Shown here: piece after piece, positions 248 to 31,377 of the stretch
Position numbering within the stretch: position 1 is the first letter of the stretch
Layout of the letters: each line of letters opens with the position of its first letter
From: Minisyncoccia bacterium
GTDB taxonomy: Bacteria > Patescibacteriota > Minisyncoccia > Phycocordibacterales > Zambryskibacteraceae
Reading direction: 5' to 3'
Assembly (NCBI GenBank): GCA_041742965.1
Contig: JBGTNQ010000010.1
Location: forward strand, 38,079-102,078
DNA: 64,000 bases
Notes under the pieces: generated by a model
Told to the model about the DNA's origin: nothing
The model's input: the letters and a program-made list of their open reading frames with translations, nothing else
Database searches by the model: none
Position numbers and translations under genes: made by a program

Positions 248-1147
248 TTAGTCAAAAATGTTTACTAGGTATTCGTCTATGGTTCTTTGATCTAAATCAT
301 AGAAGTTTATTTCTTCTCGATTTAGGTATCTTGCCAAATCTCGTCCAACAAATCTCCAATGCCATGGTTCATATTGATAATAAGTGTTGTTTTCCGGGTA
401 TGAAAGTATGAATCCGTATCTATAGGCATTTTCTTTTAACCATTTAAATTCTGGCGTGTTGTGAAATCCGACAAGTCCATTGCCGAGTGCTGGGGTGGTG
501 AAGTCAACGGTGGTCCCAAGCTGGTGTTCAGAATAACCCTGATCAGCTGAAAACTGGTTTGCTGTACCCGCACCGTAAGTAATAGTGTATCCAGTTTTCA
601 ATACTTCTTGTGTGTCGAATGATCTGAACGCAGAAGCTATCTTTAAGCTCATCCCATCCCCCTTTGCTTTTTCTAAAAGGTTTTCTAAATGAGGTATTAC
701 ATCCGCATGTAGATAGAGATCTCTCACTCCGTTTCTAGTATATTCTGGGTCAATTTGCTCTGTTCTAGGTGGTGTGTAATGTTCATTTAAGAAAAATACT
801 TTAGAATATTTTTGAAGAAGTTCGGGATCAGTTTTTGAAAGTTTTTCTAATACGCCCACAGTTCCGGCGATTTCATTTATTTGATTTTCAAAATTAGTAT
901 TACGCTCTTGTTCTGCGTAAAGTGTGTTGGCTAGATTATAGTTCTCATCTTGAGAGCGAGCTAAATCTTTCTCTAATACAACAATCCGGTCTTTTAGATT
1001 TTGTATTTCTATTCCCGCATCTGAAGCCTGTTTTTTAGAAGAAAAGAATAAGAACAAAGAAACTCCGATTAATATAAGAATCAGAAATGTCTCGCTCCAT
1101 GCAAAGGCCTTTAGTTTTGTGATGGTGGGGTAGGGGCTTCGATCCAT
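248..1147 (-). CDS. D-alanyl-D-alanine carboxypeptidase, peptidase M15 (VanY-like), membrane-anchored with coiled-coil linker
   Basis: N-terminal TM helix and coiled coil. C-terminal M15 core motifs (FRSFDTQ, SEHQLGTTVDF, EPWHWRFVG). Confidence 0.75.
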   Translation of the reverse strand: MDRSPYPTITKLKAFAWSETFLILILIGVSLFLFFSSKKQASDAGIEIQNLKDRIVVLEKDLARSQDENYNLANTLYAEQERNTNFENQINEIAGTVGVLEKLSKTDPELLQKYSKVFFLNEHYTPPRTEQIDPEYTRNGVRDLYLHADVIPHLENLLEKAKGDGMSLKIASAFRSFDTQEVLKTGYTITYGAGTANQFSADQGYSEHQLGTTVDFTTPALGNGLVGFHNTPEFKWLKENAYRYGFILSYPENNTYYQYEPWHWRFVGRDLARYLNREEINFYDLDQRTIDEYLVNIFD

Positions 1148-3248: not shown

Positions 3249-3396
3249 ATATTATATTTATTAACTTTTAATCTGAGCTATATGTGTAGCCGTTTTACCC
3301 GCAAATGTATTACAGAGTTATATTTTGGTAATGATTAAAGTATTAACTCGGCTTATGTTTGTGTATAAATTATCAATAACTAAATCATAAAATATT

Positions 3397-3564
3397 ATGA
3401 ATGAACATATAAAAAAAGAAGAAGAGAAGACAAGAGATGATTTAGAAAAAGCTACAGCTGACAAGGTTGATGCTGAGAAAAGGGTAGCAGATGCTAAGAC
3501 TACACAAGCAGATATGGCCCAAGAATCAGCTGATGAGGCCAAAAAAGATGCAGAAGAGGCTTAG
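3397..3564 (+). CDS. Possible small highly charged protein (55 aa)
   Basis: Below the ORF-track cutoff. MNEHIKKEEEKTRDDLEKATADKVDAEKRVADAKTTQADMAQESADEAKKDAEEA. More plausible than the antisense 74-aa ORF 3318-3542. Followed by a hairpin near 3602-3632. Confidence 0.25.
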   Translation: MNEHIKKEEEKTRDDLEKATADKVDAEKRVADAKTTQADMAQESADEAKKDAEEA

Positions 3565-3722
3565 TGGTAAATAAGGCAACCATGTCAATTTATAGCAAAC
3601 AAAAACCTCAAGATTTTTCTTGGGGTTTTTGTATGATAGTAAGTTGATGGGAAAATATTTTTTAATCATATAGTTGTGTTTGATTTTTGCCTTTGGTGTG
3701 CTGATTTTTATATAATACTCTT

Positions 3723-3971
3723 ATGAGTAAAAAAATCTCTAATGGTGTGGTACATAAATTACCTACAGATTTTTGTAAAATCCTCATTTCTTTTCCAGCA
3801 GTTCTGGTCCTATGGGAAGATATAACCCCACTAGCTCGCAATGAATGGATATGTTGGATTGAATCTGCAAAAAAGCACGAGACACGAGAACGCAGAATAA
3901 AGATAATGTGTGAGAATCTTTTGGCGGGGAAACGAAGACCTTGTTGTTGGGCGGGCTGTACCCATCTCTGA
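3723..3971 (+). CDS. YdeI/OmpD-associated (bacteriocin-protection) family small protein
   Basis: C-terminal pattern NEWICWIESAKKHETRERRI matches the YdeI/OmdA domain signature (EY..WI..AK..ETR.RRI). Confidence 0.5.
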   Translation: MSKKISNGVVHKLPTDFCKILISFPAVLVLWEDITPLARNEWICWIESAKKHETRERRIKIMCENLLAGKRRPCCWAGCTHL

Positions 3972-21818: not shown

Positions 21819-21890
21819 ATGGTCTTCTGTTTGTCACAGAAATATTTTTAATATAGTATTGCTGTGGAAACTCAAAACCCAGGGGGATCG

Positions 21891-27155: not shown

Positions 27156-27240
27156 GGGGCAGGGAAGCTGTTAGCTTATAGCTTAGGGGGAAAAGAAGAA
27201 AAACGAAAGAAGAAAGAAGAATGGGGAATAAAAACCCTTT
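27156..27240. repeat. ~80-bp intergenic composite element, copy 2
   Basis: gggcagggaagctgttagcttatagcttagggggaaaagaagaaaaacgaaagaagaaagaagaatggggaataaaaaccc. Confidence 0.6.
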
Positions 27241-27246
27241 GCAAAA

Positions 27247-27279
27247 CCTCCACTTGGAAACCGAGTTTCCAAGTGGGGG
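27247..27279. repeat. Palindromic hairpin element, copy A (core cacttggaaa-ccgag-tttccaagtg)
   Basis: 14-bp arms with a 5-nt centre, 44 nt upstream of tRNA-Glu. Same core as copies at 28626 and 31323. Confidence 0.65.
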
Positions 27280-27322
27280 AAGCTTGAAGCTCGAAGCTAA
27301 AAGCTGTAAGCTTCTTGTTTAA

Positions 27323-27394
27323 GGCCTCATCGTCTATCGGTTAGGACACAGCCTTCTCAAGGCTGGAAGCGGGGTTCGATTCCCCGTGAGGTCA
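27323..27394 (+). tRNA. tRNA-Glu (anticodon CUC)
   Basis: Acceptor GGCCTCA/TGAGGTC, anticodon stem CAGCC/GGCTG with loop TTCTCAA, T-arm CGGGG-TTCGATT-CCCCG. Confidence 0.8.
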
Positions 27395-27540
27395 TGGTAA
27401 CAAAAAACTCCGTCTTGTGTGGGGTTTTTGTTTTTTATATCTTTACATAGGGTGACTCTATGTAATTGGTAATTTGACATTTAAATCAAATTGTTATAAA
27501 AAGTAAGGAGAAATGTACTAAAACAAGAGAGGAATCAATA

Positions 27541-27900
27541 ATGTCAACGAAAAACCACAGATTAGGCGGTAAGTTTGGAGGATCTCACACTACAGTGATT
27601 CCCGTGGCTGGTTTAGTGTCTGACATTGCTGTTAGCCTGCCAGAAGTAAATAAGGTCGTCCTTGGATTTATCAAGGCCGGCTTGTCGTCAGTTGGTGGTC
27701 AACGAAGGGTTAAAATTACTCGTCGAGACGGCAATATTTTTCTCGCAATTCGCGATAATACCTCTCACCAAGAGATCACTGTGTATACAAGTGACCTCCA
27801 GAGGACTGCGCTGTCGATAGCAAGAAGTGCACGAAGTATTGGTCTCCATGTATCCTTCGGTGAAAGTGGCTCCACACCGCGCGCTGTTCAACACTCATAA
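27541..27900 (+). CDS. Hypothetical protein (119 aa), GC-rich island gene
   Basis: GAGG ribosome-binding site upstream. High GC. First gene downstream of tRNA-Glu. Confidence 0.45.
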   Translation: MSTKNHRLGGKFGGSHTTVIPVAGLVSDIAVSLPEVNKVVLGFIKAGLSSVGGQRRVKITRRDGNIFLAIRDNTSHQEITVYTSDLQRTALSIARSARSIGLHVSFGESGSTPRAVQHS

Positions 27901-27918
27901 CCTAAGGGAGAAGAAAAA

Positions 27919-28254
27919 GTGTCAAAGACCAGAAAAGGCAAGCCTGCTCGCTCTCGGTTCTACTTCTTGTTTCCTCGGGATGAGGAGACTGAGGTCCGTT
28001 TTGTTGAGATGGGGTTTCGGCCCCACCAGAAGCTCCGAAGGTATGGTGCGAGGGTGACGGAAGTCATCGTCTACCAGAGCAAGGAAATGCTCTCTTTGTC
28101 GGAGATGGTGGCTCTCAAAAAGAGTCCGCACCTCAATTTCTTGGTTTTGACATGTCTTCGGGGAGATTTTGCCCTAGAGTATGTCAAGCCGAGGCGTCTG
28201 GAGTCGCCGTATCTTGGCAGAGTCAAGATGAGGGTGACCTTCGTTTCGGTCTAG
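27919..28254 (+). CDS. Hypothetical protein (111 aa, GTG start), GC-rich island gene
   Basis: AAGGGAG 8 nt before GTG. Strong terminator 28271-28310 after the stop. Confidence 0.45.
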   Translation: MSKTRKGKPARSRFYFLFPRDEETEVRFVEMGFRPHQKLRRYGARVTEVIVYQSKEMLSLSEMVALKKSPHLNFLVLTCLRGDFALEYVKPRRLESPYLGRVKMRVTFVSV

Positions 28255-28270
28255 TCTTCGAGGGAACAGG

Positions 28271-28310
28271 ATCACCCAGACCGCCAAAGGCGGTCTGGGT
28301 GATTTTTCTT
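28271..28310 (+). terminator. Rho-independent terminator (15-bp stem atcacccagaccgcc/ggcggtctgggtgat)
   Basis: Perfect stem with an aaa loop, then ttttctt. Confidence 0.7.
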
Positions 28311-28344
28311 AACTAGATTTTGATTTCTGGTATAATGGATTATT

Positions 28345-28617
28345 ATGGCAACACAAACAGCAATAGACGTTTTAAAAAAAGAAATAGATAATAAAAAAAG
28401 AGAGCTTGAAAGAGCTAAACAAAAAGTCGGAGACAAAGAAAGGGACGCACAGAAGGAAAAAAGAGAATTAGAAAAAGCTCAAGAAAAAGTTACAGAAGCC
28501 GAGAAAGATATTGAGAAATTAAAAGGCGTAGTGTCAGATATAGAAGCAGAGATTGAAAGGATTCACAATGAAATGGATAGGATGATGGGGGAGTATAATA
28601 GAGAAAAGAAGTCTTAA
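28345..28617 (+). CDS. Coiled-coil protein (90 aa), AT-rich
   Basis: Uninterrupted heptad-like K/E-rich sequence. Composition like the native genome. Confidence 0.45.
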   Translation: MATQTAIDVLKKEIDNKKRELERAKQKVGDKERDAQKEKRELEKAQEKVTEAEKDIEKLKGVVSDIEAEIERIHNEMDRMMGEYNREKKS

Positions 28618-28625
28618 AGAAATAA

Positions 28626-28662
28626 CCCCACTACTTGGAAACTCAGTTTCCAAGTAGTGGGG
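28626..28662. repeat. Palindromic hairpin element, copy B (ccccactacttggaaa-ctcag-tttccaagtagtgggg)
   Basis: 16-bp perfect arms. The ORF-track ORF 28635 (METQFPS...) begins by translating this palindrome and is rejected at its N-terminus. Confidence 0.65.
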
Positions 28663-28733
28663 TTTGCTTGTGGACAAGCCTGAATCTTCTTTGTACTATC
28701 AAGAAGGATTTGCACCTATTTAGGGAGGGACTC

Positions 28734-28949
28734 ATGTATTACGACAGAGCTGATCCGAGGGTTATTGAGAGGGGAAGGGCCAAGCTTGCCGAAGGGAGTG
28801 TGGCTCGAAAGTGCTTTGAGCACATTCTTGAGAAGGGCTTACCATCTCAGAGTGCAAGGGAGTGGTTCGAAGCACTCAAGGACCAGAATTTCTCCGACTG
28901 CATTTTCGAGGTGATTCTATCTCACACCAACAACCTGATCAATGCCTAG
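28734..28949 (+). CDS. Hypothetical protein (71 aa), GC-rich island gene
   Basis: GGGAGGGA ribosome-binding site 3 nt before ATG 28734. Downstream of palindrome copy B. Confidence 0.4.
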   Translation: MYYDRADPRVIERGRAKLAEGSVARKCFEHILEKGLPSQSAREWFEALKDQNFSDCIFEVILSHTNNLINA

Positions 28950-29070
28950 CTCCGCTCAGGATGTACCCGACCTAAGAAGATCTGCCAAATCGGTAGGTCT
29001 TCTTTGTTTACAGCGACTGTTTTAAATAGTATAAAGAAAAAGGAAAGAACTTTCGCTACTCGGAGGTAAG

Positions 29071-29457
29071 ATGCGTAAAAGGAAAGTTGGAGGTCAGCCG
29101 TACAGTATTTCTAGTTACAGGGTTTTGTATCTCGAGATATTGGACCGAGACACCGTGTTCCCTGTGAGCTTTCCAAACTTGGAAACTGAGGTGGTGGTGT
29201 CACGCGGAAGGTATTGTGAGGAAATTCGAGTAAACATTATTACTCTTGCTGATGCCGAGTTGATACTGGCTAGCCGGAAGACTAAGCTCTTGAAAGACTA
29301 TCGCATTTGGGTTCAGGAAGGGAATTCTCCTCTCGCGATTTGGGATCCTCAAACCATCAGGGAAAGCAAGAAGCTCGAGAAGATTCGGGCCATGAGGGAG
29401 AGGGCGTTGGCTATTCAAGAGAGGCAGAAAAGACAGAACCTCTTGAGGAATAAGTAG
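29071..29457 (+). CDS. Hypothetical protein (128 aa), GC-rich island gene
   Basis: GGAGG 5 nt before ATG. Imperfect terminator hairpin at 29480-29530. Confidence 0.45.
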   Translation: MRKRKVGGQPYSISSYRVLYLEILDRDTVFPVSFPNLETEVVVSRGRYCEEIRVNIITLADAELILASRKTKLLKDYRIWVQEGNSPLAIWDPQTIRESKKLEKIRAMRERALAIQERQKRQNLLRNK

Positions 29458-29540
29458 TAGTGGAGTTTGGTTTTCTGGGTAAGGCCCCGCGCTAGTCCAT
29501 TTCAAACGGCTAGTGCGGGGCATTTTGCTATAATAAAAAT

Positions 29541-29810
29541 ATGAAAAGAAGAAGTTTGTTCACAGAACGTGTGTATAAAGTAGTGAAATCGATTCCTAAA
29601 GGAGAGACTTTGTCGTATGGCGGGGTAGCAAAAAGGGCAGGTAACCCCGGGGCTTCACGTGCCGTAGGAACTTTGATGAAAAACAATTTTGATAAAACAG
29701 TTCCGTGCCACAGAGTAATAAAGTCTGATGGTAGTTTAGGCAATTATAATCGCTCCGGTGGGACAGAGGCAAAGAGGAGAATGCTTTTGAAGGAGGGATG
29801 GAGGGGGTAG
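29541..29810 (+). CDS. ogt: Methylated-DNA--protein-cysteine methyltransferase, stand-alone DNA-binding/active-site domain
   Basis: GETLSYGGVAKRAGNPGASRAVGTLMKNN...PCHRVIKSDGSLGNY contains the PCHRV active-site motif. No N-terminal domain. Confidence 0.8.
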   Translation: MKRRSLFTERVYKVVKSIPKGETLSYGGVAKRAGNPGASRAVGTLMKNNFDKTVPCHRVIKSDGSLGNYNRSGGTEAKRRMLLKEGWRG

Positions 29811-29870
29811 GGAGAATGACGAATAAGGAATAATGAATGAGGAAGAGGAGGGGAAAACGAATAAGAAACA

Positions 29871-29914
29871 TTTCAACATTCTCAAGAATGTTGAAATGTT
29901 TCTTAGATATGTTT
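29871..29914. terminator. Bidirectional terminator hairpin, second member of the 19-bp-stem hairpin family
   Basis: aagaaacatttcaacattc-tcaa-gaatgttgaaatgtttctt between convergent genes. Differs from the copy at 196-241 by paired compensatory changes. Confidence 0.6.
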
Positions 29915-30094
29915 TTTTATAAGAGCTCTTAATTCTGCGACATGTTCTTCTTTGTCAGCTTCCATCTTTTTCCAAAAGGCGACAGACTCCTCGTCTCCTT
30001 CGGCGTCTTTTATATATTCGTCTTTGATACGCCAAAGACTTTTGTTTTCCTCTGTTAATTGAAGCATTAAGTTGTATAGATTGTTGTGGAGCAT
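29903..30094 (-). CDS. Hypothetical small acidic helical protein (63 aa)
   Basis: AT-rich ORF convergent with ogt. Its stop lies in the shared hairpin. Confidence 0.35.
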   Translation of the reverse strand: MLHNNLYNLMLQLTEENKSLWRIKDEYIKDAEGDEESVAFWKKMEADKEEHVAELRALIKKHI

Positions 30095-30222
30095 TTTGTA
30101 AAGAATAGGGAAAAACGAATGATGAATAATGAGGAAACAGGAACAGATTCATTCTAATATAAAAATGGAATAAAAAAACACGAGGCGACCGAAGTCGCCT
30201 CGTTTCTACTGACCGCTACTTT

Positions 30223-30495
30223 CTAGTTGCCGTAGTAACGATCGTGCCAGCTTCCCCGTACCACCTTGGGGGCTGGCTCCTGCGCCCCCTCTCTCTTGGG
30301 AGGATCGCTTCTGCCCTTACGCCCCAGAGCCTTGCCGGCTCGGGACATGAACTCCGCGAGTCCCTCGCCCTCCACCGAGTGCTCTCGGTGGAGGTTCTTC
30401 GCCGCAACGAAGAACCTATCCTTCTGCCCGTGGAGCCTTTTGAGCTCCGCGGAGAACGCTTCACGAAGGCGCTCGTTTTCAGCCCTCTCCTTCAC
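30223..30495 (-). CDS. Hypothetical protein (90 aa, GTG start), GC-rich island gene
   Basis: AGGAGG 5 nt before GTG. Terminator acgaggcgac/gtcgcctcgt plus T-run at 30174-30212. Confidence 0.45.
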   Translation of the reverse strand: MKERAENERLREAFSAELKRLHGQKDRFFVAAKNLHREHSVEGEGLAEFMSRAGKALGRKGRSDPPKREGAQEPAPKVVRGSWHDRYYGN

Positions 30496-30680
30496 AAATG
30501 CCTCCTAGGCGGGGTGGTTGGTGCCAAACAGCAGTTCTACACTTAATACTATCATAAAAAAGACAAAAAGTCAATCAAATGTGGATAAGTTTAAAATATG
30601 CCTTAGATAGGCACTTTTTTAGTATAAAAAGTAATACGCGCAGGCTCCCTTAAAGGGTAAGCCCGCGCGTATGGGTGCAA

Positions 30681-31238
30681 TCAAGAGCTGATGATCTTTG
30701 CAGGGAAGACCGCTCCTCCCGGCCAGATTCTGCCCACCCTGTCCAAGTCCATGAATCGCTTGAACCTCTTCTGGATAGACAAATTGGGGTTACTGGAGTA
30801 GTTCGTGAGGAATTGGTGAACTACTGGGACGAGGGTGGCGTCTGGACAAGACTGATTGGGTTCAAACGGAACGCCCGGGAAGACGAAGAGTTGTCCCAAG
30901 TTCCAACTTCTCTCATCTGTGAGGAAGTCCACAGATTCTTGGAAGGAGAGATACTCGAGACCGTCCGCTTTGAGTATGTCCTCAATTCGTCCTCGCCGGA
31001 CATCTTCTCTGAGCGACACCAGCACCACCCCAATTTTTCGGAGTTCGTCTTTACTCGGAGCCTTATCCAGTTTAGGATAGTCAAAGTGAGAGTCGTTGAT
31101 GCGTGAGTCGAAGTGGTGGCACGGCATTGCACTGAATGCCTGTCGAAGACTCATGCGTCCTCCAACCTTCACATCTCTGAGGATGGCCACCTGCTGTTCT
31201 GCTGAGTGCAGAGTGAACTCATCGCTTTCTCGTCCCAT
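30681..31238 (-). CDS. Hypothetical protein (185 aa), GC-rich island gene
   Basis: GAGG ribosome-binding site before ATG 31238. Imperfect terminator at 30631-30675 followed by a T-run on the minus strand. Confidence 0.45.
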   Translation of the reverse strand: MGRESDEFTLHSAEQQVAILRDVKVGGRMSLRQAFSAMPCHHFDSRINDSHFDYPKLDKAPSKDELRKIGVVLVSLREDVRRGRIEDILKADGLEYLSFQESVDFLTDERSWNLGQLFVFPGVPFEPNQSCPDATLVPVVHQFLTNYSSNPNLSIQKRFKRFMDLDRVGRIWPGGAVFPAKIISS

Positions 31239-31322
31239 TTTTTGCCTCGTTTCTAGTTGCGGTTTAGGTACAAAGATTCTCTACAAATACAATCATTTTT
31301 TACAAAAAAGTCAATGAAACAA

Positions 31323-31357
31323 GCCCATACTTGGAAACTCAGTTTCCAAGTATGGGC
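31323..31357. repeat. Palindromic hairpin element, copy C (gcccatacttggaaa-ctcag-tttccaagtatgggc)
   Basis: 15-bp perfect arms at the distal edge of the GC-rich island. The ORF-track ORF 31331 (METQFPS...) is its translation artefact. Confidence 0.65.
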
Positions 31358-31377
31358 TGCCTGTATTTAATTTGCTT

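Follow-up and report, generated by a model that had tools for sequence, protein, structure and literature searches.

The DNA analysed here is a 64-kb stretch (the window, at its full length) of a bacterial chromosome of ~40% G+C, whose closest DNA matches among the fetched loci are metagenome-assembled genomes (MAGs) of Patescibacteria (the candidate phyla radiation, CPR). Its genes encode LysRS, MraW, a PBP, MurF, tRNA-Glu, an ATL-type DNA-binding protein and YqeY, and further RmuC, L21, RecR, DnaB, CysRS and CorA. A phage origin was rejected: phage records gave 0 matches and the gene content is that of a CPR chromosome. The one further record of this genome, a 28.8-kb Logan contig (L196), covers the same region with the same sequence. 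Our subject is a short hairpin-forming palindrome present in three copies between murF and yqeY. An earlier description based on the letters of the window (the sequence-only reading) had presented these copies as a family with a common core and co-varying outer stems, and had offered integron attC-like sites, repetitive extragenic palindromic (REP) hairpins or structured RNA as explanations.

The 23-nt core ACTTGGAAAC-NNN-GTTTCCAAGT occurs in exactly three exact copies in the window (Table 1). Dinucleotide-preserving shuffles gave an expected count of 0.00, or 0.04 when three mismatches were allowed, and a relaxed search added no copy; the three full copies reported earlier are thus confirmed. 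All three are intergenic. Copy 1 is situated 92 nt after the murF stop codon and 44 nt before tRNA-Glu(CUC); its 15-nt arms (CCTCCACTTGGAAAC/GTTTCCAAGTGGGGG) are 93% complementary, with one T.G pair contained in the outer arms CCTCC/GGGGG. Copy 2 begins 7 nt past the stop codon of an open reading frame (ORF) for a 90-aa coiled-coil protein (28345-28617) and forms a perfect stem of 19-20 bp, AACCCCACTA...TAGTGGGGTT (20-nt arms AACCCCACTACTTGGAAACT/AGTTTCCAAGTAGTGGGGTT). Copy 3 has a perfect 17-bp stem, AGCCCATA...TATGGGCT (arms AGCCCATACTTGGAAAC/GTTTCCAAGTATGGGCT); on the minus strand it lies 20 nt downstream of the yqeY stop codon and is followed by TGTTTCATT. The stems therefore measure 15-20 bp rather than the 14-16 bp first given, and the perfect self-complementarity claimed for every copy holds for copies 2 and 3 but not for copy 1. 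RNA folding of the three hairpins yielded -25 to -33 kcal/mol (z -4.4 to -7.6).

Two partial copies had also been proposed. The one inside ORF 29071-29457 is real: positions 29177-29190 are identical to an arm plus loop for 14 nt, where 0.06 such matches are expected. This relic is translated as ..SFPNLETE.., in the LETxFPS frame described below, and its sequence fits a junction between two tandem copies that have decayed. The other, at 21866-21875, is a mere 9-mer match, of which 0.75 are expected by chance. The core half-site by itself is not enriched in the window (5 singles versus 4 expected), and on this count the idea of an uptake sequence was rejected.

Table 1. Coordinates of the palindromes and associated features. 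Positions without a locus number refer to the window; L-numbers denote the loci compared.
Feature	Position	Strand	Details
REP-like palindrome copy 1	27247..27279	.	core 27252-27274, centre CGA
REP-like palindrome copy 2	28624..28664	.	core 28633-28655, centre TCA
REP-like palindrome copy 3	31322..31358	.	core 31329-31351, centre TCA
Decayed relic in ORF 29071-29457	29169..29190	+	TTTCCAA then ACTTGGAAACTGAG
Core-stem variant	L201		GGAGAC/GTCTCC
Core-stem variant	L203		GGAAGC/GCTTCC
Core-stem variant	L202		GGAAAT, giving a U.G pair
Core-stem variant	L002		TTAGAAGC/GCTTCTAA
Core-stem variants	L016		TTGGCGC/GCGCCAA and TTGGTGGC/GCCACCAA
Extended -10 overlapping the upstream palindrome	L201-L204 position 362-400		also L026, L029, L040, L054
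G+C-rich island beside tRNA-Glu	27400-31300		o111 52% GC, o71 50%, o128 47%, o90 63%, o185 52%
Variant palindromes	L116 11543-11565; L168 4217-4239; L016 639, 3138, 3390-3930
Second palindrome family	196-241, 29862-29905; L116 4879-4912; L126 12713-12746

The distribution of the core was determined by a pattern scan for CTTGGAAAC-NNN-GTTTCCAAG over one genome per species (185,579 genomes, 596 Gb). It was found in at least 115 loci, nearly all of them Patescibacteria MAGs (Moran-, Giovannoni-, Campbell-, Zambryski-, Niyogi-, Sungii-, Nealson- and Nomurabacteria, Paceibacterota and MAGs labelled Saccharibacteria), whereas an arithmetic estimate gives ~9 chance matches for 596 Gb. The few non-CPR matches, flanked by C...G instead of A...T, look like chance matches. 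Among 139 sampled copies the flanking A and T are near-fixed (120/139 each) and the next positions favour CC...GG; the conserved unit is ~23-29 bp long and can be written (C)CA-CTTGGAAAC-NNN-GTTTCCAAG-TG(G). The 3-nt centre varies with lineage and is found in both orientations (TTA/TAA, CCG/CGG, TCG/CGA, GGG/CCC). The identical 18-nt core is present in MAGs of more than ten named CPR lineages, whose associated enzymes, described next, are ~55-60% identical; horizontal transfer might also account for this identity of the core. It was likewise kept in four orthologous pairs, but since these loci had been ascertained by an exact core match, we did not use them as evidence for purifying selection. 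The family proposed for the window is real on a much wider scale, with a transposase as the only recurrent neighbour gene; its proposed link to G+C-rich genes holds in the window.

Simple ORF calling revealed a recurring ORF of ~213-215 aa that has the palindrome close by on either side and also within it. Eight of ten scanned ORFs matched Pfam PF01797 Y1_Tnp (E 1e-7 to 6e-4) and are ~55% identical to each other between lineages; the other two encode unrelated proteins. Further members were identified by tblastn in L002 and L016 (57-58% identity). Both catalytic motifs, HxH and Y, are invariant across 28 sequences, and the family comprises 4,487 clusters at E<=1e-5, labelled "transposase" in the sources and "REP element-mobilizing transposase RayT" at JGI, that is, a REP-associated tyrosine transposase (RAYT). 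In three scanned members the sole match was NCBIfam REP_Tyr_transpos, at 23 bits and far below its cut-off of 80. Sequence searches of the PDB with the enzyme gave no matches. For an AlphaFold2 model (pLDDT 82), the top Foldseek match was 4ER8 chain A, from a complex of the E. coli RAYT with a REP hairpin (E 1.8e-5, root-mean-square deviation 3.0, TM 0.71 relative to the target); IS608 and ISDra2 TnpA matched more weakly (TM about 0.55). One cognate gene per assembly was present among the matches listed. Paralogous RAYTs (32-38% identity; L010, L079) have their own flanking hairpins, which are unrelated to the palindrome.

The palindrome flanks the gene in 14 of 14 CPR loci examined, ten of which came from the motif scan and four from protein similarity (one of the latter, L203, is without a recognisable downstream copy). 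At the motif-scan loci the palindrome or a compensated variant is seen on both sides of the gene. The upstream copy ends 10-25 nt before ATG-AGA (MRK...); the downstream copy, where canonical, starts 0-16 nt past the stop codon; and there are 0-2 in-frame internal copies. Most of the examined loci have internal copies, usually at two fixed positions. Because the motif-scan loci had been ascertained by the motif, four homologues (L201-L204, 59-68% identity to the query) were chosen by protein similarity alone as an unbiased test set. In these, hairpins H1, H2 and H3 are present in 4/4 and H4 is recognisable in 3/4. H1 has its end 19 nt ahead of the ATG, and a TGnTAnnAT-like extended -10 comes directly after it; H2 and H3 lie ~+170 and ~+455 nt into the ORF, where they are translated as L-G-N-x-V-S-K; H4 is located 10-30 nt past the stop codon and is the one missing in L203. 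The genes next to the enzyme differ by lineage in this set (UDG, RuvX, KsgA, S12).

The stem of the core varies between lineages in a compensatory manner, each variant being common to most or all copies of a locus, translated ones included (Table 1). In 32 distinct 23-mers both sides have changed in 6 of 10 pairs (30 cells), 98% of the cells are paired, and the covariation score was reached by 0 of 500 shuffles. The earlier argument from covariation had been built on the outer stems, where it is weak: family-wide, complementarity outside the 9-bp arm is enriched at ~4 more positions (z 6.7, 5.4, 3.7 and 2.1) and then falls to chance. What stood is the conservation of the hairpin itself, whose core stem covaries from one lineage to another.

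A perfect dyad with a 3-bp spacer that is kept across lineages could also be the operator of a regulator that binds double-stranded DNA (LexA-, HrcA/CIRCE- or ParB-like), with the neighbouring genes as its regulon. The DNA-repair genes ATL, RmuC and RecR are nearby, and the copy upstream of the RAYT-like gene overlaps a promoter. The 3' foot of that palindrome provides the TG of the extended -10 (CCAAG-TGnTAnnAT), which lies ~10 nt ahead of the start codon; hairpin and promoter of the gene consequently overlap, an arrangement that suggests autoregulation and a very short leader. We nevertheless rejected the operator idea as highly improbable because half of the copies reside in ORFs of unrelated housekeeping genes and the compensatory changes keep pairing, not sequence. 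In addition, the only recurrent neighbour is the transposase gene, and the half-site alone is not enriched.

Our preferred interpretation, to which we assign a probability of about 0.8, is that the hairpins of the window are REP-like elements, selfish or domesticated, of a CPR-wide REP/RAYT system of the REPtron type. Of the options in the sequence-only reading, the REP option is the one supported, by an HUH/Y1 RAYT-like gene flanked by the palindrome in related genomes and by a predicted fold nearest to E. coli RAYT. In a REPtron each RAYT has its own repeat family and its gene is flanked by the repeats (PMC3337134, PMC6006769). The CPR palindrome agrees with this scheme in several respects: it is short, forms hairpins and occurs in multiple copies (three plus one relic in 64 kb); in relatives, as opposed to the window, it flanks an HUH/Y1 gene; it is also dispersed in the chromosome; paralogous enzymes have hairpin families of their own; in-frame copies are seen inside the enzyme gene and other genes; and the stem has a symmetry resembling a 'double foot', combined with the 4ER8-like fold. 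In-frame REPs inside tnpA-REP and other genes are known for subclass 2.4 of Quentin et al. 2018, which occurs in Cyanobacteria and Bacteroidetes (PMC6006769), and this subclass is the closest to the CPR system.

A number of observations weigh against this interpretation or set the CPR element apart from known REPs. There is no RAYT gene within the 64-kb window, and the link to the enzyme consequently rests on other genomes; the cognate enzyme anticipated by the sequence-only reading was found in related genomes only. REPs are described as carrying a conserved 5' GT[AG]G guide at the hairpin foot and as species-specific (PMC6006769). The CPR element is without such a guide, being flanked by yCA at the 5' and TGr at the 3' side, and GTGG was found only as part of the 3' foot (139 copies). 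It is also near-invariant across many CPR lineages. Its palindromes are perfect, with a 3-nt centre, and apparently low in copy number: among the matches listed, a genome of ~1 Mb has at least a few and up to about 10 exact cores. The internal copies precede the HUH motif and follow the Y motif instead of lying between them, and the CPR protein scores 23 bits against an NCBIfam RAYT cut-off of 80. The set used for covariation had been pre-filtered for >=9 pairs. Two further points, the intragenic copies and the comparison of filled and empty sites, concern the behaviour of the element in its host genes.

Inside ORFs of >=150 aa lie 63 of the 139 sampled copies, in all three frames (LGNxVSK 28, LETxFPS 26, TWKxxFQV 9) and in both orientations. 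With about half of the sampled copies intragenic, the element is not 'extragenic' family-wide, in contrast to REPs and to the three intact copies of the window. The same frames and orientations, together with the absence of an Rfam match (only tRNAs reach the gathering score in the window, with nothing over the hairpins at E<=1), leave the structured-RNA option of the sequence-only reading without support. The host genes encode LepA, GatA, ArgRS (three copies in two genomes), LigA (two tandem copies), topoisomerase I and a PMT-type glycosyltransferase. Among 120 homologues of TopA, one surface loop contains one, 1.5 or two copies, copies in graded decay, or unrelated sequence of similar length, and these states vary even among proteins that are 83-89% identical. 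With all states represented, copies come and go. A clean pair of a filled and an empty site was not found: TopA alleles with and without the element are similar in length, so that neither simple cut-and-paste nor a plain +23-bp insertion is demonstrated, and the ArgRS paralogues were too divergent for this comparison.

In-frame copies in essential genes, translated as peptide segments in surface loops, are reminiscent of the Rickettsia palindromic elements. Those, however, are 100-150 bp long, Rickettsia-specific and without a known cognate transposase, whereas the CPR unit measures 23-29 bp and has an evident Y1 enzyme.

A Y1 HUH transposase predicted to act on single-stranded DNA, with hairpins by its gene and a match to Pfam Y1_Tnp as the best by sequence, equally brings to mind the insertion sequences (ISs) of the IS200/IS605 type (IS608, ISDra2). 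The gene and its two hairpins might accordingly be an autonomous IS, and the window palindromes its leftover ends or mini-derivatives; that the hairpins abut the gene like IS200 ends and that the neighbours of the gene vary among lineages would fit. We consider this unlikely. The same perfect palindrome is found on both sides of the gene, whereas IS ends are distinct, imperfect left and right structures, and solo 23-bp palindromes are not two-ended mini-ISs. The protein of ~213 aa has a C-terminal extension and exceeds the ~130-150 aa of TnpA, and its fold is nearer to RAYT (4ER8) than to IS608 or ISDra2 TnpA (TMt about 0.55 for the latter). Among the matches listed there is one cognate gene per genome, and the CPR loci examined contain no tnpB and no sign of multiple full-length copies.

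Under the REP/RAYT interpretation, and by homology with E. coli TnpA-REP and IS200/IS605 TnpA, the Y1 enzyme would recognise the hairpin once it is extruded in single-stranded DNA, such as the lagging-strand template, and would cut and rejoin at the hairpin foot, whereby copies would be seeded or homogenised elsewhere in the chromosome. As for the outer stems of the window copies, the sequence-only reading held that these extensions differ completely; the left outer arms of copies 2 and 3, AATAACCCCACTA and AACAAGCCCA-TA, in fact align with 10/13 matches and one gap (p ~0.001), and their differences (one substitution, one indel) are mirrored in the right arms. The extensions are therefore not independent inventions, and copies 2 and 3 appear to derive from a single ~40-bp palindrome that remained symmetrical. 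The mirrored differences point to selection for pairing or, alternatively, to one arm being regenerated from the other. The enrichment of C/G beside the core throughout the family (consensus CCA-core-TGG) indicates that the element includes part of the extension. Extensions of >=6 bp are seen in 13 of 76 copies outside long ORFs versus 0 of 63 inside, and the long ones in other genomes are mostly A+T-rich. A further alternative, insertion of the core into the loop of a terminator that was already there, is not supported: the orthologous yqeY spacer of the relative L116 is without a hairpin, the extensions elsewhere are mostly A+T-rich, and the C/G bases by the core are the family consensus.

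The hairpins might instead be ordinary intrinsic terminators or mRNA 3' stabilisers, alike by descent or convergence and with no mobile element involved. Copies 2 and 3 follow stop codons at 7 and 20 nt, are flanked by A-rich 5' and T-rich 3' sequence and have T-rich tails on the strand of the upstream gene that pass a loose terminator scan (>=5 T in 8); RNA stability is high. The absence of a U-run noted in the sequence-only reading accordingly holds for copy 1, which has no T-tail and fails the scan, but not for copies 2 and 3. As an account of the family we regard termination as very unlikely, since the core recurs in very distant genomes, is read inside ORFs in any of three frames and is found both beside and inside a transposase gene, while the native terminators of the window have unrelated stems and clear T-runs. 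Because of their position and flanks, it is plausible that copies 2 and 3 serve in addition as putative transcript 3' hairpins, as terminator or stabiliser.

The three hairpins and the relic all fall within 4 kb of the window, and the hairpins mark a lineage-specific G+C-rich island beside tRNA-Glu. The small ORFs around the copies, from tRNA-Glu to yqeY, have 47-63% GC versus 40% for the window (Table 1), and Pfam, PHROGs and PADLOC gave no informative match for them. Relatives were compared at 80 loci syntenic for RmuC (793 kb in total). The island ORFs are absent in 78 of these; the exceptions are L116, which has some of them at 36-47% identity, and L196, the window's own Logan record. Core copies and RAYT homologues numbered 0 and 0 in the 80 loci, and the distribution of the element is patchy. 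The closest relative is L116, whose flanking genes share 81-89% protein identity with those of the window. Copy 2 forms the left edge of a 378-nt segment (28618-28995) that is missing from L116. Its parts are copy 2 itself, a promoter-like TGGACA-17-TACTAT, an ORF of 71 aa (28734-28949) and a small terminator, the hairpin AAGAAGATC...GGTCTTCTT followed by TGTTT; thereafter the alignment with L116 resumes at the promoter region of the next gene. The spacer that holds copy 3 is 80 nt shorter in L116 and lacks the hairpin. Within the window, the earlier claim that copies co-locate with G+C-rich genes and with an insertion boundary was therefore correct.

Copies that punctuate a G+C-rich island beside a tRNA gene, one of them at the edge of an indel, would be in keeping with integron attC-like or other site-specific recombination sites bounding gene cassettes; attC hairpins, too, are recognised in single-stranded form as recombination substrates and show little conservation of primary sequence. 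An attC site, however, is 57-141 bp long and imperfect, with extrahelical bases, an R''/L''-L'/R' layout and GTTRRRY, and belongs to a one-orientation array served by IntI. The window palindromes pair perfectly or nearly so and have none of these features; they do not form a one-orientation or cassette array. No IntI and no other tyrosine or serine recombinase was found among the annotated neighbours, and the enzyme associated with the palindrome elsewhere is an HUH/Y1 transposase. The probability of the attC explanation is negligible in our view.

REP/RAYT systems are known mostly from Proteobacteria, Cyanobacteria and Bacteroidetes. In the literature collection searched we found no paper that ties them to Patescibacteria, although one may exist elsewhere, and a search on the motif sequence returned nothing relevant. 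If our interpretation is true, the ultra-small, streamlined CPR genomes keep a system of repeat plus enzyme in which the repeat is unusually conserved between lineages, co-varies with its enzyme and appears in essential proteins in the form of short peptides (LGNxVSK, LETxFPS, TWKxxFQV). One small protein and a 23-nt hairpin would provide a tractable case of Y1 recognition without a GTAG guide, and the palindrome would be a simple sequence marker for CPR DNA in metagenomes. A more far-reaching version, which we consider rather doubtful, is that of an ancient REPtron kept vertically in Patescibacteria: the palindrome would have stayed near-invariant across much of the radiation, the enzyme gene would always have its four hairpins (promoter, two in-ORF, post-stop) at fixed positions, the mirrored arms would reflect fold-back templating instead of two independent mutations, and the copies in essential genes (LigA, TopA, ArgRS, LepA) would be maintained as opposed to tolerated. 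Such a system would amount to host-integrated processing of single-stranded DNA in the smallest known bacterial genomes.

Several additional observations were made. Many contigs that contain a RAYT gene are just 1-2 kb long, which suggests that assemblies often break at this repeat-rich gene; the gene may explain some contig breaks in metagenomes. Variant palindromes keep the ACTTGG/CCAAGT foot and differ in the apical stem (ACGT/ACGT, CGG/CCG, CGC/GCG, TGGC/GCCA; Table 1), and several such families can coexist with the canonical one in a single genome. The canonical palindrome is also seen in L002 (labelled Bdellovibrionales), L015, L022 and L049 (labelled Gammaproteobacteria), and L002 additionally has a RAYT-like gene with variant hairpins. 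These MAGs are either mislabelled bins or contaminated with CPR DNA, or the element exists outside Patescibacteria.

In the window, copy 1 is flanked by runs of a GAAGCTT-like 7-mer at 27162-27190 and 27279-27317, the right run containing five copies, and a purine-rich AAAGAAG repeat (x4) lies between the two runs. The runs pair in the predicted fold, such that copy 1 becomes the tip of an imperfect hairpin of ~150 nt upstream of tRNA-Glu. At 30216-30546, ORFs overlap on both strands, and this stretch may therefore be non-coding. Finally, the window contains two copies of a second, unrelated family of perfect palindromes, AACATTyCAACATTCT-nn-AGAATGTTGrAATGTT, with A-run and T-run flanks (Table 1). 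The two copies differ by one compensatory change, C:G to T:A, and the copy between the convergent genes for ATL and o63 is kept at the orthologous site of L116. The element is probably a bidirectional terminator, or possibly belongs to another REP-like family.

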